DNA of 64,000 nucleotides, taken from assembly GCF_055900595.2 (NCBI RefSeq), contig NZ_CM148325.1; one strand, written 5' to 3'. Positions 2,303 through 50,904 of this stretch are shown piece after piece (position 1 is the first letter of the stretch; every line of letters begins with the position of its first letter). A program made the translations under genes and the position numbers. Below the pieces are notes generated by a model, which was given only the letters and a program-made list of their open reading frames with translations, was not told the DNA's origin and did no database searches.

Positions 2303-2858
2303 CAATTTCTCCTGGAGGAATGCAAATAATTCAGCTTTTAGCCAGTTCAGCCCGGGAAGGTGCCTGACCGTAAAAATGAAATCTGTCTATCGGCGATGGC
2401 TTAATCATTTTCCGCCGTAATAATTTGAGGGCGGAAAGATACACACAAGTTATGTATCTATCAGTGATCTTGATCTCAAATACAATAATCTACTTGGAAG
2501 ATAGATAATCTCAACGCTTTACTCTGTAAATCAAAAGTAAAAGAGAATTTAAGGGCAATATTTGCCCATTAAACGACATCTGACCTCTTCCGGGGCGCGC
2601 AATATATGTAGGTTGAGCTGAAAAAATCAATACTTTTAGTGAATAATGGGGATAATTTATTTTTCATAGCGATAAAATGTGGTTTGTGAAAACAGGGAAA
2701 CGTTTGCGTTGTAATATAAATTGTATGACATATTAACTGTGATGATGTTTATCGCGTGAGGACGGTAAGAAACATTTATATAACAAATGAAATGAATTGA
2801 TGGGTAAGTAACCAAAAACGAGAAAACCCGGCAACTAATGTCACCGGGGAAGGGGAGA

Positions 2859-4223
2859 TTACGTGCAGATTTCGTAGCAAGGGATGTACGCTGAGCCTGG
2901 CAACTTCATACGATGCTGGGCAACAAAACCCTGTAGCAGGTCGTCCATACGACGCATAATCTCTTTATCGCCGTTGATTTTGTAAGGACCAAACTCTTCA
3001 ATGGCGCGAATACCGACTTCTTTTACGTTACCCGCCACAATACCGGAGAAGGCACGACGCAGATCAGCGGCCAAAACTTCTACTGGCTGATCCGGGTACA
3101 GTTTCAGATTAGCCATGTTCTCGTGAGACGGCTCAAACGGCATTTGCAGATCGGGCGCAATACGCATTGACCAGTTAAAGCTGTAGGCATCGCCCGTATC
3201 GCGACGGTTTTCTTTCACCAGCGGCATCGATTTTTTCATCTGACGAGCGACTTCAGCGGCGTCATCAATGATGATGCGATAATGGCGTCGCGCGTTTTCT
3301 CCCAGCGTATGCACGACAAACTCGTCCAGTACGCGGAAATAGTCGGCGCTCTCTTTTGGCCCGGTGAGGATCAATGGTAAAACCTGATCTTTGTTGGCCG
3401 GATTCATTAAAATTCCCAGCAAATACAGCAACTCTTCTGCCGTACCCACACCGCCAGGGAAGATAATGATGCCGTGAGCGATACGAACAAAAGCTTCCAG
3501 ACGTTTTTCGATATCCGGCATGATGATCAATTCGTTGACCAGCGGGTTAGGCGGTTCAGCGGCGATAATCGACGGCTCTGTCATACCAATAAAACGACTG
3601 TCTTTGTAACGCTGCTGTGCGTGTCCGACCGCAGCACCTTTCATCGGCGCTTCCATCGCTCCCGGACCACAGCCGGTGCAGATATTCAGCTCACGCAGGC
3701 CCAGCTGATTCCCGACGCGACGGGCATACAAATACTCGTTTTCGTTAATTGAGTGCCCGCCCCAGCAGACCACCATATTTGGCGCTTCACCGACATGCAG
3801 CGCACGAGCGTTACGCAAGATGGAAAAGACCAGGTTAGTGATGTGGACGGAGTTGTCGAGATTCAGGTTGGGAAAACGAACGGTGTTATGGATTTGCCCG
3901 TAAACGAAGAGAATGTCACGCAGAACCGCGAACAAGTTGGCCTGCAAAGCGCGGATAATACGCCCATCGACAAAAGCATCTTCCGGTGGATTAATCAGTT
4001 CCAGCTTTACGCCGCGTTCACGGCGCAGGACGTTAATATCGAAATTTTCAAAACGAGACAGCAATTCTTTGCTGTTATCGGTCAAACTACCGGAGTTCAG
4101 TACGGCAAGTGAACAGTTGCGAAACAGTTGATAGAGGTCGCTGCTGGCGGTGCGTTTAAGCATATCCACTTCCAGCTGCGACAACATATCCATGGAGCCA
4201 AGCGGGCTAATATGTGTAATCAA
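2859..4223 (-). CDS. ppnN: Nucleotide 5'-monophosphate nucleosidase PpnN (LOG family, YgdH)
   Basis: 454-aa [27 protein letters not shown]... with PGGxGTxEE LOG-type motif. Confidence 0.88.
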
Positions 4224-5250: not shown

Positions 5251-5796
5251 GTGGACGATTTGACCGCACAAGCCCTGAAAGATTTTACTGCACGCTACTG
5301 CGATGCGTGGCATGAAGAGCATAAAAGCTGGCCGTTAAGTGAGGAACTGTACGGCGTTCCTTCACCGTGCATTATTTCAACCACCGAAGACGCTGTATAC
5401 TGGCAACCCCAGCCGTTTACCGGTGAACAAAATGTAAACGCGGTTGAACGTGCTTTTGATATTGTGATACAACCCACGGTTCATACTTTTTACACGACCC
5501 AGTTTGCCGGGGATATGCACGCGCAGTTTGGCGATATCAAACTGACATTGCTGCAAACCTGGAGTGAAGACGACTTCCGTCGGGTGCAGGAAAATCTGAT
5601 TGGTCATCTGGTGACTCAGAAAAGGCTAAAACTGCCGCCCACGCTATTTATCGCGACGCTGGAAGAAGAGTTAGAGGTCATCTCGGTGTGTAATCTCTCC
5701 GGTGAAGTGTGCAAAGAGACGCTGGGAACACGTAAACGGACGCATTTAGCCTCAAATCTTGCGGAATTCCTTAATCAACTTAAGCCTCTTCTGTAA
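5251..5796 (+). CDS. syd: SecY-interacting protein Syd
   Basis: 181-aa [38 protein letters not shown]... Confidence 0.88.
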
Positions 5797-5815
5797 TCCA
5801 AATACCCCATCTTGT

Positions 5816-5833
5816 TGTGAGAGATCTCTTACA
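5816..5833. promoter_or_regulatory. UvrY/SirA-type response-regulator box upstream of csrB
   Basis: Perfect 18-bp palindrome TGTGAGAGATCTCTTACA centred about 183 bp upstream of the inferred csrB 5' end. Confidence 0.7.
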
Positions 5834-6006
5834 GACTCTGTAGGAGATCGCCAGGAAATAAGCGAATACTTAAAAAGATAAGAATCGTTATTTTCATTTA
5901 AAATCAATATATTGCTTGTTAATTCCTAACTTTCATATGAAATTTTCCTTAAGGCATTGTCTGTAAGCGCCTTGTAAGACTTCGCGAAAAAGACGATTCT
6001 ATCTTC

Positions 6007-6370
6007 GTCGACAGGGAGTCAGACAACGAAGTGAACATCAGGATGATGACACTTCTGCAGGACACACCAGGAGGGTGTTTCAGGGAAAGGCTTCTGGATG
6101 AAGCGAAGAGGATGACGCAGGACGCGTTAAAGGACACCTCCAGGATGGAGAATGAGAACCGGTCAGGATGATTCGGTGGGTCAGGAAGGCCAGGGACACT
6201 TCAGGATGAAGTATCACATCGGGGTGGTGTGAGCAGGAAGCAATAGTTCAGGATGAACGATTGGCCGCAAGGCCAGAGGAAAAGTTGTCAAGGATGAGCA
6301 GGGAGCAACAAAAGTAGCTGGAATGCTGCGAAACGAACCGGGAGCACTGTGAATACAGTGCTCCCTTTTT
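6007..6370 (+). ncRNA. csrB: CsrB small RNA (CsrA-sequestering)
   Basis: About 360 nt with no long ORF, many CAGGATG/AGGA motifs spaced along it, ending in a GC stem plus T-run; 5' end approximate. Confidence 0.9.
6339..6370 (+). terminator. csrB intrinsic terminator
   Basis: Stem GGGAGCACTG / CAGTGCTCCC followed by TTTTT. Confidence 0.8.
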
Positions 6371-6371
6371 G

Positions 6372-7085
6372 TGCACAGAAAACCCCCAGCTAGGCTGGGG
6401 GTTCCGGAAAGCTTTCAGCTTTGAGCCAGTTATTAAAACCCCTTTTGATTTGTTAAAACACCTTGCGGTCTGGCAACTGCAAGTGTCAAACAAGAAATCA
6501 AAAGGGGGTCCCAATGGGGGACGAAAAGAGCTTAGCGCACACCCGCTGGAACTGTAAATATCACATAGTTTTTGCGCCGAAATACCGAAGACTGGCGTTT
6601 TACGGAGAGAAGCGTAGGGCGATAGGCAGTATTTTGAGAAAGCTGTGTGAGTGGAAAAGCGTACGGATTCTGGAAGCAGAGTGCTGCGCAGATCATATCC
6701 ATATGCTTGTGGAAATCCCACCCAAAATGAGCGTATCCGGCTTTATGGGATATCTGAAAGGGAAAAGCAGTCTGATGCTTTACGAGCAGTTTGGGGATTT
6801 GAAATTCAAATACAGAAACAGGGAGTTCTGGTGCCGAGGGTACTATGTCGATACGGTGGGTAAGAACACGGCGAAGATACAGGACTACATAAAGCACCAG
6901 CTTGAAGAGGATAAAATGGGGGAGCAGTTATCGATTCCATATCCGGGCAGCCCGTTTACGGGCCGTAAGTAACGAAGTTGAATGCAAATGTCAGATCGTA
7001 TGCGCCTGTTAGGGCGCGGCTGGTAACAGAGCCTTACAGGCGCATTTGAAAAACCTCCGGCTATGCCGGAGGATATTTATTTTTA
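6372..7085 (+). mobile_element. IS200-like insertion sequence (IS200/IS605 family); boundaries approximate
   Basis: About 710 bp unit holding a 152-aa Y1-transposase ORF, a perfect palindrome CCCCCAGCTAGGCTGGGGG at the left end and stem-loops at the right end; no inverted terminal repeats, as expected for IS200. Confidence 0.72.
6514..6972 (+). CDS. tnpA: IS200 transposase TnpA (HUH/Y1 type)
   Basis: MGDEKSLAHTRWNCKYHIVFAPKYRR...HIHMLVEIPPKMSVSGFMGYLKGKSS...; 152 aa from the internal Met of ORF 6463..6972. Confidence 0.9.
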   Translation: MGDEKSLAHTRWNCKYHIVFAPKYRRLAFYGEKRRAIGSILRKLCEWKSVRILEAECCADHIHMLVEIPPKMSVSGFMGYLKGKSSLMLYEQFGDLKFKYRNREFWCRGYYVDTVGKNTAKIQDYIKHQLEEDKMGEQLSIPYPGSPFTGRK

Positions 7086-7129
7086 TTCCTGCTATCCTTC
7101 GCGGCAGTTTTTCTTATTGAGGTTGCTTT

Positions 7130-7459
7130 ATGACCACTCATGACCGCGTTCGTCTCCAGTTGCAGGCGCTTGAAGCATTACTGCGTGAACATCAGCACTG
7201 GCGAAACGATGATCCTCAGCCGCATCAATTTAACAGTACCCAACCGTTCTTTATGGACACCATGGAACCACTGGAGTGGTTGCAATGGGTGCTGATCCCG
7301 CGAATGCACGATTTGTTAGATAATAACCAGCCATTACCGGGCGCTTTTGCTGTTGCACCCTATTATGAAATGGCGCTGGCGACGGACCATCCGCAACGCG
7401 CGCTTATTCTGGCTGAGCTGGAAAAACTGGATGCTCTTTTTGCGGATGATGCGAGCTGA
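7130..7459 (+). CDS. yqcC: DUF446 protein YqcC
   Basis: 109-aa ORF immediately upstream of truC with stop/start overlap. Confidence 0.8.
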   Translation: MTTHDRVRLQLQALEALLREHQHWRNDDPQPHQFNSTQPFFMDTMEPLEWLQWVLIPRMHDLLDNNQPLPGAFAVAPYYEMALATDHPQRALILAELEKLDALFADDAS

Positions 7460-13240: not shown

Positions 13241-15997
13241 TTACCCAAGAATTTTGCTGGCTTCGCGCGCTACATTATCCATCTCGTCCAACAGTTCCAG
13301 CAGCTCCGGCTCCAAATCTTCTTCTTTAGTACCGCTGCGTAGCTGTTGTTCGATCAGTTGGCAGAGATTCTTCATACGCGGCACACCGCTATAGCCGCAA
13401 CTGCCATGCAGTTTATGAATCAAATCAACCAGGCCTTCCGGGTTTTCTCCAACCAGCTGTTCCTCAACTTTGTTGCGAACTTCAGGCAGGAAATCGAGTA
13501 ACATTTGCAGCATATCGCGCGCTAAATCGGTTTTTCCTGCTGCCTGGCGTAGTGCCAGTTGCCAGTCGAGGGTCGCATTCGGGTTCACCACAATTTCATT
13601 GACTTCGGGGGTCACGACGCGAGAGGAAATACCGCTGCCAGGCTTGTAGCGCAACAGCAAATTATGCAATCGTTCTTCTTCAATCGGTTTCGCCAGATAA
13701 TCGCTCATCCCTGCGCCAAGCAGCTTCTCTTTTTGCCCGGCCATTGCATGCGCCGTTACCGCGATAACCGGCGTTTGTTGCTGATGTGGGAGCTGGTGGA
13801 TGAGTTCGCAGGCCCGAATTCCGTCCATGTCCGGCATTTGAATATCCATTAAGATCAGATCGAACGGCATCTGTTTCGCCCGTTCAACGGCCTGATGCCC
13901 GCTATCGCAAAGTTCCACATGTTGCACCATATCTTCCAGCAATGCGCCGATAAGTTTCAGGTTAGCGGGGTTGTCATCAACCGCCATGACTGTCATTGCC
14001 AGCTTACTTTCATCGGTTACAGGCAAAAGCGTGTTTTGTTTGTGATGACAAAATTCCGTCAGGGCAGGGAACAGGCGTGTAGGTGTTAATGGTTTCAGCA
14101 GACACGCGCCGATACCATCTTGCTTAAGTTTTTCAGCATTGACTTGTGCATGGCAAGGAAGTGCCAGCATCAGAAAATCGGTCATCGATACCGCTTTCGC
14201 TAATCGCTCATGTTGCATTGTTAGCGGCTCGCGGAAGGTCACCGCAATGCCTAATAACATCATGTCGTAATGCGCGGGAGGCAGCGCGGAGAACGTTGGG
14301 CTATAAACCACTTCCAGCGGCGTTTCACTTAAAATATCCAGCGTGCATTGCGCTGCTGCGGAGTTTGGTTCGACATAGGCCAGGCGCTTGCCGGCGAGGC
14401 ACTGGGTGGATGGCCCTTCGATAATAATGTTCGGATTCAGATCGAGATTAATGTGGAACCAGAAAGTTGAACCGCGATTCGGCTGGCTATGGAACGAAAT
14501 ATCGCCGCCCATTTCATTAACCAGTTTCTGTGTGATCACCAGCCCCAGCCCGGTGCCACCATGACGGCGGGAAATACTGGCATCAGCCTGTCGGAAGGCC
14601 TGGAATAAGCGCGATTGATCGCGTTCCGGAATACCAATGCCGGTATCCCGAATCTGCACTTCAATCTGCACTTTGGTATTACTCAGCGCACGTTTTTCTA
14701 CCAGAATATCAATGTTGCCATTCTCGGTGAATTTAATTGCATTCCCTACCAGGTTAGTGATGATTTGCTGTAATCGCAGTGGGTCGCCAATTACATTATC
14801 GGGCACGTCGCTCTTAATATTGAGCGTCAGTTCCAGCCCTTTATCGTGAGAAGAATGTGCCAGCAGGGTAACGACTTCATCCAGCGTGCTGCGTAGTGGG
14901 AATGGAATACTTTCCAGAATCAGCTTACCTGCTTCCAGTTTCGAGAAGTCGAGAACATCATTAATAATTGCCAGCAAATTATTTGCCGAACGTTCAATCG
15001 TATTCAGGTGATCGCGCTGCGTTGGTGTTAATTCTGTTTTCAGCGTCAGGCGGGTAAAGCCAATAACGCCATTGAGCGGAGTTCGCAGCTCGTGGGACAT
15101 ATTTGCCAGAAACTCAGACTTAATCCGCGCCGCTTCCTGGGCACGTTTTTTCGCCAGATCCAACTCAACGTTCTGAATTTCCATCTGCTCCAGCGTTTCA
15201 CGTAGATCGGACGTCGCCTGGTCGATATTGTGCTGCATCTCTTCGTGATAAGCTGCCAGCGACATTGCCATCGAGTTGATGCCATTTTTCAGCATATCCA
15301 GCTCGCCGAGCATAAATCCTTCCACTCGGCTGTCGAGTTGTCCGCGACGGATACGGTCGACGGTATTCACCATGTTGCGAATTGGACCGGTTACATCACG
15401 CATGAGTCGCCAGCCAAAAATAAGCGCAATACCGATACAAAACAGCATCATCACGCTGGAAATAAAGATCTCTTTATATTGCTGCAAGCGAACCGATTTT
15501 AGATCCAGTTCAAGCGCGATATATCCCAGCATATTTTGACTATTTTTGGCATCACTACTGGGCGATTCGTCGGGGGAATAACTCTCGGAAATAATTGGTG
15601 TGCGTAAGATCATAATATCACCGTCACGTGTGACAGTGAGCTGGCGAGGAAACGGCACGTTGCTGCCGAGCTGCATTGATGAGGGATCAAGATGAAAATT
15701 GGAGGTGACAAAGAGTCGGTTATTTTCATCATAAACCGAAATCGCGCGAACAATATCGGAATGGCGACGATGCAGTACGCTTATTAACTGACCGATAGAT
15801 TCGCGATTTTGCAGGCTCATGCCATATTCAGTAGAAACTGCAAGCGGCTCAATAATGCTGGCTCCGGCATCTTCCAGTTGACGCTGCAAGTCGTTATAGC
15901 GATGCACAACGAAAAAGATACTCAGCAATAAACCAATAAGGACGGTCGGTGCCAGGATCAGAATCATCATGCGTGCGCGCAGGCTGTAGTTGGTCAT
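13241..15997 (-). CDS. barA: Hybrid sensor histidine kinase BarA
   Basis: 918-aa ORF with N-terminal TM segments, HAMP, HisKA (HELRTPLN), receiver and HPt regions. Confidence 0.93.
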
Positions 15998-28137: not shown

Positions 28138-29466
28138 CTGAGAGATCCCCTCATAATTTCCCCAAAACGTAACCATGTGTGAATAGATTTTGAGTAAGCA
28201 GGGTTGCAGCCACGAGTGAGTCTTCCCTTGTTATTGTGTAGCCAGAATGCCGCAAAACTTCCATGCCTAAGCGAACTGTTGAGAGTACGTTTCGATTTCT
28301 GACTGTGTTAGCCTGGAAGTGCTTGTCCCAACCTTGTTTCTGAGCATGAACGCCCGCAAGCCAACATGTTAGTTGAAGCATCAGGGCGATTAGCAGCATG
28401 ATATCAAAACGCTCTGAGCTGCTCGTTCGGCTATGGCGTAGGCCTAGTCCGTAGGCAGGACTTTTCAAGTCTCGGAAGGTTTCTTCAATCTGCATTCGCT
28501 TCGAATAGATATTAACAAGTTGTTTGGGTGTTCGAATTTCAACAGGTAAGTTAGTTGCTAGAATCCATGGCTCCTTTGCCGACGCTGAGTAGATTTTAGG
28601 TGACGGGTGGTGACAATGAGTCCGTGTCGAGCGCTGATTTTTTCGGCCTTTAGAGCGAGATTTATACAATAGAATTTGGCATGAGATTGGATTGCTTTTA
28701 GTCAGCCTCTTATAGCCTAAAGTCTTTGAGTGACTAGATGACATATCATGTAAGTTGCTGATAGGTTTCCAGTTTTCCGCTCCTAGGTCTGCATATTGTA
28801 CTTTTCCTCTTACTCGACTTAACCAGTACCAACCCAGCTTCTCAACGGATTTATACCATGGCACTTTAAAGCCAGCATCACTGACAATGAGCGGTGTGGT
28901 GTTACTCGGTAGAATGCTCGCAAGGTCGGCTAGAAATTGGTCATGAGCTTTCTTTGAACATTGCTCTGAAAGCGGGAACGCTTTCTCATAAAGAGTAACA
29001 GAACGACCGTGTAGTGCGACTGAAGCTCGCAATACCATAAGCCGTTTTTGCTCACGGATATCAGACCAGTCAACAAGTACAATGGGCATCGTATTGCCCG
29101 AACAGATAAAGCTAGCATGCCAACGGTATACAGCGAGTCGCTCTTTGTGGAGGTGACGATTACCTAACAATCGGTCGATTCGTTTGATGTTATGTTTTGT
29201 TCTCGCTTTGGTTGGCAGGTTACGGCCAAGTTCGGTAAGAGTGAGAGTTTTACAGTCAAGTAAGGCGTGGCAAGCCAACGTTAAGCTGTTGAGTCGTTTT
29301 AAGTGTAATTCGGGGCAGAATTGGTAAAGAGAGTCGTGTAAAATATCGAGTTCGCACATTTTGTTGTCTGATTATTGATTTTTGGCGAAACCATTTGATC
29401 ATATGACAAGATGTGTATCCACCTTAACTTAATGATTTTTACCAAAATCATTAGGGGATTCATCAG
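28138..29466 (-). mobile_element. IS10 (IS4 family), complete 1329-bp copy
   Basis: Ends CTGAGAGATCCCCTCATAATTTCCCC (inside end) and, on the reverse strand, CTGATGAATCCCCTAATGATTTTGGT (outside end); exact length 1329 bp; 402-aa transposase; flanked by 9-bp direct repeat. Confidence 0.93.
28151..29359 (-). CDS. IS10 transposase
   Basis: 402-aa ORF MCELDILHDSLYQFCPELHLKRLNSLTLACHALLDCK... Confidence 0.93.
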   Translation of the reverse strand: MCELDILHDSLYQFCPELHLKRLNSLTLACHALLDCKTLTLTELGRNLPTKARTKHNIKRIDRLLGNRHLHKERLAVYRWHASFICSGNTMPIVLVDWSDIREQKRLMVLRASVALHGRSVTLYEKAFPLSEQCSKKAHDQFLADLASILPSNTTPLIVSDAGFKVPWYKSVEKLGWYWLSRVRGKVQYADLGAENWKPISNLHDMSSSHSKTLGYKRLTKSNPISCQILLYKSRSKGRKNQRSTRTHCHHPSPKIYSASAKEPWILATNLPVEIRTPKQLVNIYSKRMQIEETFRDLKSPAYGLGLRHSRTSSSERFDIMLLIALMLQLTCWLAGVHAQKQGWDKHFQANTVRNRNVLSTVRLGMEVLRHSGYTITREDSLVAATLLTQNLFTHGYVLGKL

Positions 29467-47593: not shown

Positions 47594-47855
47594 ATATTGC
47601 CGGATAAAATAAACGCCTCTGTCAGAAATGATGGGGCGTTTTTATTTTGCGAGCAGCATTCCGGCATTTAAACGTGAATATAGCAAGGGAAATCAACAGT
47701 TATAGAATGGCGTCGGGTGCTTGAGGCTGTCTGGCGTTGAGCATTCGCGAGGTTCCAGATGGACAAAAGCCCCAGGCGATATTTCTATCAACCTGAGGCT
47801 CGCGTTCGAACGTAGCAATTCGGATGTTAGTCTCTTCTTTGCAGGGAGGCAAGAC

Positions 47856-48008
47856 ATGCTGACAAAATATGCCCTTGTGGCAATCATCGTACTGTGTTGT
47901 ACAGTACTGGGATTCACGCTGATGGTAGGCGACTCGTTGTGTGAGTTGAGTATCAGAGAACGTGGTATGGAGTTTAAGGCAGTTCTCGCTTACGAATCGA
48001 AGAAGTAG
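47856..48008 (+). CDS. Hok/Gef-family type I toxin peptide (hokX-like)
   Basis: 50 aa [50 protein letters not shown]: one TM helix plus Hok C-terminal signature; GGGAGG RBS at 47844; GC hairpin ACGCGGGGGTAAAACCCCGCGT follows the stop. Confidence 0.7.
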
Positions 48009-48246: not shown

Positions 48247-50904
48247 GTGACTTTCTTTGATTTCTGGGGAAAAACCCGACGTGGCGAGAAAGAGGGTGGC
48301 GACGATTATCACCTTCTTTGCTGGCATTCGCTGGATGTAGCCGCGATAGGCTATTTAATGGTCAAAAACAACTGTTTCGGGCTGGCTGACTATTTTCGTC
48401 AATTAGGTTTCGCTGACACGGATCAGGCAGCACAATTTTTCGCCTGGTTGTTGTGCTGGCACGATACTGGAAAATTTGCCCGCTCATTTCAGCAACTTTA
48501 CCTGCACCCACAACTCAAGGTTCCGGAAGGCGCAAGAAAGAATTACGAAAAGATCTCTCATTCAACGCTGGGTTACTGGTTGTGGCATCATTATTTAATT
48601 GAATGTGAAGAGTTGCTTCCTTCATCTTCACTCTCTTTGCGCAAACTTAAACGGGTAATAGATATGTGGATGCCCGTGACGACCGGGCATCATGGTCGGC
48701 CTCCTGACCGTATCGATGAACTGGACAACTTTCTGCCTGAAGACAAAGCTGCCGCACGAGATTTTCTCCTTGCAATCAAGTCACTGTTTCCGCTCATAGA
48801 GATCCCCACATTCTGGGATGATGACGAGGGCGTTGAACTTATAAAACATCTTTCCTGGTATATATCTGCAACCGTCGTACTCGCAGACTGGACGGGATCG
48901 TCAACGCGGTTTTTTCCACGCGTCGCACATGTAATGGATATTAAAGATTACTGGCAGAATGCTTTAGCTCAGGCTCAAAACGCATTAACCGTCTTTCCTC
49001 CAAAAGCAGAAACCGCACCTTTCACTGGAATTAACACGCTGTTTCCTTTTATTGAGAACCCAACACCGTTACAGCAAAAGGTGCTGGATCTGGATATCAG
49101 CCAGCCAGAACCGCAGTTGTTTATTCTGGAAGATGTGACTGGCGCAGGTAAAACAGAAGCGGCGCTTATCCTGGCGCACAGGTTGATGTCTGCGGGTAAC
49201 GCTCAGGGGCTGTTTTTTGGTTTGCCGACAATGGCAACGGCCAATGCCATGTACGATAGGCTGGTCAAAACCTGGCTTGCTTTCTATTCGCCGGAATCCC
49301 GCCCCAGCCTGGTGCTGGCACACAGCGCTCGTTCGCTAATGGATCGCTTTAACGCATCGCTGTGGTCTGGTGATTTTGTGGGGTCAGAAGAACCGGATGA
49401 ACAAGCGTTCAGTCAGGGATGTGCGGCCTGGTTTGCTGGCAGTAACAAGAAGGCGTTGCTGGCTGAAATTGGCGTCGGCACGCTGGATCAGGCGATGATG
49501 GCGGTGATGCCGTTCAAACATAATAATCTGCGGCTTCTGGGGCTGAGTAACAAAATCCTGCTAGCCGATGAGATCCACGCCTGTGACGCTTATATGTCGT
49601 GCATTCTTGAAGGGCTGATCGAGCGGCAGGCGCGTGGCGGAAACAGCGTTATTTTGCTTTCTGCTACGTTGTCTCAACAGCAGCGTGACAAACTCGTCGC
49701 CGCCTTTGCGCGTGGTGCAGAGGGCCAGCAAGAAGCTCCGTTGCTGGAAAAAGATGATTATCCCTGGCTGACGCATGTCACGAAATCCGATGTGCATTCG
49801 CACCGGGTAGCGACGCGCAAAGACGTTGAGCGCAGCGTGAGTGTGGGTTGGCTTCATAGCGAACAAGAGTGTATTGCGCGTATCGAATCGGCGGTAAGTC
49901 AGGGGAAATGCATCGCCTGGATTCGGAATTCTGTCGATGACGCCATCCAGGTTCATCGTCAGCTGCTTGCCCGCGGCGTCATTCCTGCTTCCAGCCTTTC
50001 ACTTTTTCATAGCCGCTTTGCTTTTAGCGATCGCCAGCGAATTGAAACGGAGACGCTGGCACGCTTTGGTAAAGAAGACTGTTCACAGCGTGCCGGAAAA
50101 GTCCTCATTTGTACTCAGGTCCTGGAGCAGAGCGTCGACTGCGACCTGGACGAAATGATTTCCGACCTTGCCCCTGTTGATTTACTGATCCAGCGAGCAG
50201 GGCGATTACAGCGACATATCCGCGATATTAATGGTCAGTTAAAGCGTGACGGTAAAGACGAGCGTCACCCTCCTGTATTGCTGATTCTGGCCCCCGTCTG
50301 GGACGACTCTCCGGGTGAAGAATGGTTTGCCAGTGCCATGCGTAACAGTGCATTTGTCTATCCCGATCATGGGCGAATCTGGTTGACGCAGCGTGTGCTG
50401 CGTGAACAAGGCGCGATTCAGATGCCACACTCAGCCCGGCTTCTGATTGAATCAGTCTACGGTGAGGACGTGGTAATGCCGGAAGGGTTTGCCCGCAGCG
50501 AGCAGGAGCAAGTGGGCAAATACTACTGCGATCGTTCAATGGCTAATAAGTTTGTGCTGAACTTCAGGCCCGGCTATGCCGCCAATATCAACGATTACCT
50601 TCCGGAAAAACTGTCGACACGTCTGGCTGAGGAGTCTGTTTCCTTGTGGTTGGCTACCTGTATTGACGGTGTGGTGAAGCCTTATGCCACTGGCGCTCAC
50701 GCATGGGAAATGAGCGTTGTCAGAGCGCGCCAAAGCTGGTGGAAAAAACATCGGGATGAGTTTTCTTTACTGGAAGGGGATGCGTTCAGGCAGTGGTGCG
50801 TTGAACAGCGGCAAGATCCGGAGATGGTAAATGTGATTTTAGTTACCGATGACGAAAGTTGCGGGTATTCGGCTACGGAGGGATTGATTGGCAAGGTTGG
50901 TTGA
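48247..50904 (+). CDS. cas3: Cas3 HD-nuclease/helicase (type I-E)
   Basis: 885-aa ORF (GTG start) with HD motifs, Walker A TGAGKTEAAL and DEIH box. Confidence 0.9.
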   Translation: MTFFDFWGKTRRGEKEGGDDYHLLCWHSLDVAAIGYLMVKNNCFGLADYFRQLGFADTDQAAQFFAWLLCWHDTGKFARSFQQLYLHPQLKVPEGARKNYEKISHSTLGYWLWHHYLIECEELLPSSSLSLRKLKRVIDMWMPVTTGHHGRPPDRIDELDNFLPEDKAAARDFLLAIKSLFPLIEIPTFWDDDEGVELIKHLSWYISATVVLADWTGSSTRFFPRVAHVMDIKDYWQNALAQAQNALTVFPPKAETAPFTGINTLFPFIENPTPLQQKVLDLDISQPEPQLFILEDVTGAGKTEAALILAHRLMSAGNAQGLFFGLPTMATANAMYDRLVKTWLAFYSPESRPSLVLAHSARSLMDRFNASLWSGDFVGSEEPDEQAFSQGCAAWFAGSNKKALLAEIGVGTLDQAMMAVMPFKHNNLRLLGLSNKILLADEIHACDAYMSCILEGLIERQARGGNSVILLSATLSQQQRDKLVAAFARGAEGQQEAPLLEKDDYPWLTHVTKSDVHSHRVATRKDVERSVSVGWLHSEQECIARIESAVSQGKCIAWIRNSVDDAIQVHRQLLARGVIPASSLSLFHSRFAFSDRQRIETETLARFGKEDCSQRAGKVLICTQVLEQSVDCDLDEMISDLAPVDLLIQRAGRLQRHIRDINGQLKRDGKDERHPPVLLILAPVWDDSPGEEWFASAMRNSAFVYPDHGRIWLTQRVLREQGAIQMPHSARLLIESVYGEDVVMPEGFARSEQEQVGKYYCDRSMANKFVLNFRPGYAANINDYLPEKLSTRLAEESVSLWLATCIDGVVKPYATGAHAWEMSVVRARQSWWKKHRDEFSLLEGDAFRQWCVEQRQDPEMVNVILVTDDESCGYSATEGLIGKVG

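Follow-up and report, generated by a model that had tools for sequence, protein, structure and literature searches.

The gene for the regulatory RNA CsrB is found in the analysed window (the whole stretch of 64,000 nucleotides) together with an IS200 insertion at its 3' end, which raises the question whether this csrB copy is still in working order and why the element lies at just this place. Our main reading, drawn from the sequence and held with a probability of about 85%, is that of a canonical E. coli csrB in working order, in which IS200 would have entered the T-tract of the terminator by target preference and with a small effect on CsrB.

The window represents E. coli chromosomal DNA, and its first 24.7 kb are collinear with the genome of strain Z0117EC0005 (NZ_CP098223) at 99.97% identity. 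The gene order round csrB is sdaB, sdaC, ppnN, queF, syd, csrB, the IS200, yqcC, truC, yqcA, gudP, gudX, gudD, barA, rlmD, relA, and mazEF, which, IS200 excepted, matches the order in K-12 (syd-csrB-yqcC-truC-yqcA-gudPXD-barA). The RNA gene itself and its terminator hairpin were located as follows:

6007..6370, + strand: csrB, gene for the CsrA-sequestering sRNA, with 22 GGA motifs (Rfam RF00018 and alignment with K-12)
6340..6365, + strand: intrinsic terminator hairpin of csrB, 11-bp stem and 4-nt loop, dG -19.9 kcal/mol (terminator scan and fold)

Comparison with the Rfam CsrB family (RF00018) resulted in a match at 6016-6375 that covered the full model (1-356 of 356) with 373.6 bits and E = 1.4e-108, the gathering score being 71. 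Alignment with csrB of K-12 (b4408, 369 nt) revealed 362 identical residues at 364 aligned positions (99.5%), and both genes share the syd-csrB-yqcC locus, 22 GGA sites, the terminator hairpin, and the 3' decay segment. One of the two substitutions, 6073 T>G, lies in the third hairpin loop, where CAGGAUG becomes CAGGAGG and GGA is left in place; this loop varies naturally in E. coli, with strain N96 displaying CCATGAGGG. The other, 6346 G>A, falls in the terminator stem and replaces the one G.U pair of K-12 by A-U, so that the stem is perfect in the window. Within 6007-6370, we counted 22 GGA, 14 AGGA, 7 CAGGA[TA]G, and 5 CAGGATG motifs, compared with 15.2 +/- 2.6 GGA in dinucleotide shuffles and a median of 5 in other 364-nt windows. 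In the minimum free energy fold, 18 of the 22 GGA motifs were mostly unpaired, and nine of the 22 were located in hairpin loops. Vakulskas et al. (2016) likewise number 22 GGA sites, the last one in the terminator stem, and describe an unstructured segment 5' of the csrB terminator which is needed for CsrD/RNase E decay, the RNase E cleavage site lying immediately upstream of the terminator (PMC5027483). This decay segment is unaltered in the window. From the 99.5% identity to K-12 CsrB, we infer that the RNA of the window binds and sequesters CsrA in the same manner.

Upstream of csrB, the following elements were assigned:

5816..5833, no strand given: UvrY~P binding site, 18-bp inverted repeat TGTGAGAGATCTCTTACA (exact match to the published sequence and position)
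5839..5847, + strand: auxiliary partial half-site TGTAGGAGA (read in the sequence; 5 bp downstream of the inverted repeat, spacing as in PMC4682653)
5902..5914, + strand: putative IHF core AATCAATATATTG (match to the consensus WATCAANNNNTTR read in the sequence; at about -99, between two UvrY cross-linking regions)
5927..6006, + strand: core promoter region of csrB (identical to K-12 in the alignment; includes a weak TTGTAA-17-GATTCT pair at 5972-6000)

The transcription start was set to G6007 by alignment of the 5' end of K-12 b4408, which starts with GTCGACAGGG, and the centre of the palindrome is thereby placed at -183/-182. Zere et al. (2015) described the same 18-nt repeat at -183/-182 as the site at which UvrY~P binds to E. 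coli csrB, and also reported a partial repeat 5 bp downstream of the box and an IHF site between box and promoter; UvrY~P binding and BarA dependence were demonstrated in K-12 (PMC4682653). The 18-bp box is identical in the window, K-12, B20105, and N96, so both properties would be expected for csrB of the window as well. Only a single exact match to the repeat was found in the window, where about 0.04 chance matches are expected at up to three mismatches. The sequence-only reading, which had seen an 18-bp palindrome about 183 bp upstream of csrB at the known UvrY/SirA position, was exact in this point. Compared with K-12, one SNP (T for G) was detected at 5813, 3 bp 5' of the otherwise identical box, and the AT-rich spacer contains four more, at 5908, 5911, 5915, and 5926. 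Two of these, 5908 and 5911, fall on N positions of the consensus in the putative IHF core, whose exact placement at 5902-5914 is our own proposal. Since positions 5927-6072 are identical to K-12, neither the core promoter nor the promoter-proximal UvrY cross-linking region has changed. The hexamers TTGTAA and GATTCT are candidate promoter elements. A scan of 5700-7250 for sigma-70 promoters detected no strong one, a result that says nothing about yqcC; for csrB, the lack of a strong sigma-70 consensus fits its dependence on an activator. Both the palindrome and the motif array, whose disruption would count against a functional copy, are intact, in line with the intact UvrY box and the array of CAGGATG-type motifs described from the letters alone.

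At the 3' end of csrB, the following arrangement emerged when the window was aligned with two empty sites, those of K-12 and of N96, the latter being the closest relative free of the IS:

6366..6370, + strand: T5 remaining from the csrB T-tract on the left-hand side of the IS (from the K-12 and N96 alignments)
6371..7081, + strand: IS200 element, 711 bp (absent from K-12 and N96; ends set against the empty sites)
6381-6403, + strand: left-end hairpin/terminator of IS200 (inside the STnc490 match)
6514-6972, + strand: tnpA of IS200, 152-aa Y1 transposase (Pfam Y1_Tnp PF01797, 126.5 bits, E = 7.9e-37; tnpA in RefSeq; the only ORF of the element)
7054-7072, + strand: right-end hairpin of IS200 (terminator scan)
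7082..7084, + strand: distal part of the csrB T-tract, three T's moved to the right-hand side of the IS (comparison with the empty sites)
7130..7459, + strand: yqcC, the usual gene 3' of csrB (ORF list and RefSeq annotation of the identical region)

While the empty site reads GTGCTCCC-TTTTTTT-ATTCCTGC, i.e., CCC-T7-ATTCC, the window displays GTGCTCCC-TTTTT / GTGCACAG...GGAGGATATTTATT / TTT-ATTCCTGC, i.e., CCC-T5/IS/T3-ATTCC. By this alignment, IS200 splits the T-tract that belongs to the intrinsic terminator of csrB, entering behind the fifth of seven T's. The IS200 that had been noticed adjacent to csrB is indeed located directly at its 3' end; it is not merely adjacent but lies within the terminator T-tract, and the earlier end coordinate of csrB, 6370, is the last T ahead of the element. 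The insertion spares the promoter and activator sites as well as the terminator hairpin and the segment for RNase E/CsrD decay. With regard to the T's round the element, the window holds 5+3 = 8, the empty sites 7, and the lineage of strain B20105, which also carries an IS at this place, 6+1 = 7. The B20105 junction exactly fits an insertion without target duplication, though the flanking T's leave the exact ends ambiguous. The extra T of the window possibly goes back to a length polymorphism of the T-run, to slippage, or to a variable cleavage point at the right end. We rejected the idea that hairpin and T-run are part of the IS itself, as each locus has a hairpin of different sequence and the empty sites, too, contain the csrB hairpin.

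The element of the window is structurally no different from the IS200/IS1541 group, with which it shares the size of 711 bp, a single Y1 transposase gene, the lack of inverted repeats, a right-end hairpin, a left-end terminator hairpin at about nt 11-33, and the 5'UTR/STnc490 structure (Rfam STnc490, 6381-6504, 146.4 bits). Its size falls in the range of about 707-711 bp expected of IS200, and size, subterminal hairpins, left-end terminator, and structured 5'UTR also agree with the published description of IS200 (PMC4513863). Specific to this copy is its target, the T-tract of the csrB terminator.

The insertion pushes yqcC 711 bp farther from csrB, the gap between both genes being only 42 bp in K-12. 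About 35 nt 5' of the yqcC start, at 7090-7098, we noticed TGCTATCCT, which is similar to an extended -10 element. Because this element sits 3' of the insertion point, the core promoter of yqcC may be unaffected by IS200. RefSeq (PGAP) annotates the IS-bearing genomes without a csrB feature between syd and tnpA, so that the junction of csrB and IS200 is not visible in the annotation. The absent csrB feature is a matter of the pipeline, the csrB sequence itself being present.

Screening of 5,426 complete E. coli genomes revealed an IS at the csrB terminator site in only 11, the remaining 5,415 being without. Eight of the 11 were identical or nearly identical to the window, and three, namely B20105 and two assemblies of strain 405, carried an IS200C variant with the junction T6/IS/T1 and 96.2% identity to the IS200 of the window. 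For each of the two variants, copies with 99.5-100% identity exist at unrelated loci in other strains, those of the window's IS200 reaching 100%; judged by these copies, the two E. coli lineages represent two independent and fairly recent insertions into the same csrB T-tract. The divergence of the IS (3.8%) is about that of the flanks (1.7-4%) between the two lineages, and divergence alone is not decisive. A single ancient insertion common to both was rejected in view of the different junctions (T5/T3 and T6/T1), the near-identical copies elsewhere, and the 5,415 of 5,426 genomes without IS. A corresponding arrangement was found in Yersinia pestis NCTC5923, whose csrB (locus positions 2429-2879, minus strand; Rfam CsrB, 272 bits) displays 22 GGA and a UvrY-type box TGTGCGAGATCTCTCACA upstream. 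There, the left end of an IS1541 follows 6 nt past csrB in the terminator T-tract (...CAGTACCCC-TTTTTT/GTGCCCAG...), in the same arrangement and orientation as csrB and IS200 of the window. By these comparisons, at least three independent insertions have struck the csrB terminator, two of them in E. coli and one in Yersinia. In the literature searched, no paper connected csrB with an IS200 or IS1541 beside it.

To place this in a wider frame, E. coli copies of IS200 were inspected, and all seven copies, from six loci, lie next to a terminator-like hairpin and T-run of the same orientation. Among them are five copies away from csrB, directly behind a GC-rich hairpin plus T-run and co-oriented with the gene 5' of them, namely a DUF905 gene, ydgJ, dmsC, gadC, and fruA. 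In a survey of left junctions, the left-end hairpin of IS200 was sought in one genome per species, leading to 118 non-redundant junctions from genomes of Yersinia pestis, Vibrio, Brenneria, Mailhella, Desulfovibrio, Oxalobacter, Bacillota, and others. A junction was scored if a perfect hairpin of 5 bp or more, 3 or more of them GC pairs, ended no more than 12 nt from it and was followed by a T-rich tail, and 448 positions located 150-450 nt upstream in the same loci served as controls, rule and controls being our own simple definitions. Hairpin and T-rich tail were present at 81% of the 118 left junctions and at 2% of the 448 control positions. T was found at positions -6, -5, -4, -2, and -1 in 81-98% of the junctions and is nearly invariant at -2/-1. 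The distance between stem end and junction peaks at 3-6 nt, of which the csrB junctions with 5 and 6 nt are typical. In Y. pestis, two copies immediately follow another copy, whose right end consists of a hairpin and ATATTTATT; such a right end of IS200-type elements itself resembles a target of hairpin and T-run.

Since hairpin and T-run mark 81% of the junctions and 2% of the controls, the placement of IS200 at csrB is explained by the target preference of the element and by nothing special in the function of csrB. The preference could partly reflect the survival of harmless insertions and not a mechanistic choice of target. When the literature was searched for papers that state the target specificity of IS200 explicitly, only an enrichment at the family level was found, reported in a preprint of 2025-26 in which terminator-like sequences were most enriched upstream of IS200/IS605-family elements (10.1101/2025.07.22.666184). 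As this enrichment is already noted there, the association with hairpin and T-run at most gives a sharper form to what is known. An insertion directly behind terminator hairpins explains why IS200-type elements are so often harmless. Elements of the IS200/IS605 family transpose as single strands by 'peel and paste' into the lagging-strand template. As csrB is co-directional with replication in K-12, with the sense strand that bears the T-run serving as lagging-strand template, the orientation of IS200 at csrB would fit insertion into that template. Class C group II introns of bacteria are mobile elements that are likewise reported to choose sites just 3' of intrinsic terminator hairpins, but the likeness is restricted to the target, as a retrohoming ribozyme and single-strand transposition by an HUH/Y1 enzyme are unrelated mechanisms.

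How far the insertion perturbs CsrB is the point at which the readings diverge. Weaker termination, a 3'-extended CsrB ending at the left-end hairpin of IS200, an altered stability or CsrD/RNase E decay, and finally a shifted Csr output might follow from it, and a hint in this direction comes from the U-tract, which is changed from UUUUUUUAUU to UUUUUGUGCA. Five T's are retained and followed by GTGCAC from the IS, so that 7 U (plus AUU) become 5 U (plus GUG) and the d'Aubenton-Carafa tail score drops from 5.26 at the empty site to 4.0 in the window; a U-tract shortened in this way could measurably reduce termination. The hairpin in front of it is intact and even slightly stronger than in K-12 (-19.9 vs -19.5 kcal/mol). 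The proximal U residues count most for intrinsic termination, and since five of them are kept, most CsrB is expected to end at its normal site. Moreover, Ellis et al. (2015) describe nt 12-34 of IS200 as a bidirectional Rho-independent terminator by which the element is shielded from impinging transcription (PMC4513863), so read-through from csrB should be arrested at the left-end hairpin with the efficiency taken from that literature; on the plus strand, only UU follows this hairpin. Changes of the 3'-end structure could also matter for the necessary RNase E cleavage site just 5' of the terminator (PMC5027483), and the rarity of the insertion (11/5,426 genomes) is compatible with a mild cost. 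Against this stand IS200-type elements behind many genes in the same position, which suggests a general tolerance, the csrB body without decay in the IS-bearing lineage, and Y. pestis, which retains a csrB with 22 GGA in front of its IS1541. Because the position is the standard target of IS200-type elements, a strong effect is not expected, and with the hairpin intact and five U remaining, the predicted effect on CsrB is mild. A real perturbation of CsrB thus appears unlikely to us.

Far less probable still is a csrB copy that is decaying or non-functional, be it through the IS or through the substitution in a CsrA-binding loop. The change of CAGGAUG to CAGGAGG at 6073 and the missing csrB entry in RefSeq for the IS-bearing genomes might be taken in its favour, but the GGA core of this loop and all 22 GGA are kept, the loop is variable among E. 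coli including strains without IS, the match to the full Rfam model is strong, and promoter, UvrY box, and terminator hairpin are intact. A decaying allele was therefore rejected, there being only two substitutions in all. Compared with these readings, a csrB in working order with an IS200 placed by target preference agrees best with the junctions, the survey, and the alignment with K-12.

The vicinity of barA allows a further reading, which concerns the locus as a whole:

13241..15997, - strand: barA, gene for the tripartite sensor kinase that phosphorylates UvrY (918-aa ORF; BarA in the RefSeq annotation of the 99.97% identical region)

As had been pointed out in the sequence-only reading, barA shares the window with csrB at a distance of about 7 kb, in exact terms 6.9 kb. 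The gene is intact. Its product of 918 aa differs from that of K-12 by one substitution (L643F), and the Pfam architecture sCache-HAMP-HisKA-HATPase-REC-Hpt is complete, all six domain types scoring above their cut-offs. A functional clustering of the signalling pathway, with co-regulation or co-transfer of kinase and target, might be seen in the location of both genes within 7 kb and in the fact that barA is adjoined by relA, whose product ppGpp also stimulates csrB. We regard it as very improbable, as csrB and barA are separated by seven unrelated genes (yqcC, truC, yqcA, gudP, gudX, gudD, and here also tnpA), barA lies on the opposite strand with neighbours of its own, and the response regulator gene uvrY is absent from the window and lies elsewhere. 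The identical csrB...barA order in K-12 with unrelated genes in between led us to reject clustering; the distance between csrB and barA is the ordinary conserved gene order of E. coli and is without functional meaning.

For the preferred reading of a working csrB, the regulatory steps established in K-12 would, given the near-identity of the sequences, proceed in the window as follows. BarA would phosphorylate UvrY, and UvrY~P would bind the 18-bp inverted repeat at -183/-182; IHF would bend the intervening DNA, and the weak csrB promoter would be activated. The resulting 364-nt RNA would sequester CsrA dimers through about 20 GGA motifs exposed as single strands, and its decay would begin at the unstructured segment just 5' of the terminator. 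IS200 would have inserted after the fifth T, as IS200-type elements target the 3' side of a hairpin plus T-run; most transcripts should still terminate natively, and read-through should stop about 35 nt further at the left-end hairpin of IS200. Overall, csrB, UvrY box, GGA array, and barA are all located at their published positions, as expected from the remark that this is known biology. The csrB/BarA-UvrY observation is textbook matter, to which the exact placement of IS200 and its explanation by target preference are added in detail.

A more far-reaching idea is that IS200-type elements recognise terminator hairpin and T-run in single-stranded DNA, that the highly transcribed csrB is a recurrent hot spot for them, and that the insertion measurably changes 3'-end formation or stability of CsrB and, with it, the set-point of the Csr system. 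We put this forward as speculation with a small chance of being right. If the shortened U-tract does alter termination or decay of CsrB, the natural variants would readily lend themselves to studies on the role of 3'-end formation in tuning CsrA sequestration.

Some further features were noticed elsewhere in the window. A complete IS10 (1,329 bp) with a 9-bp target duplication CTTTTTGCC is located at 28138-29466 between queE and a gene of the LemA family; it accounts for an Rfam RNA-OUT match at 29352-29421 and is absent from the near-identical genome NZ_CP098223. The type I-E cas3 gene at 48247-50904 is an intact ORF of 885 aa, while cas3 of NZ_CP098223 is frameshifted or partly deleted, with an adjoining IS421, and the two CRISPR arrays of the window have spacers that differ from those of NZ_CP098223. 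A GGA-dense stretch at about 50600-50900 was considered as a further sRNA and rejected, as it lies within the cas3 coding region. Finally, a chromosomal hok/sok locus (Rfam sok, 103 bits) was detected at 47715-47871, adjoining cysH.
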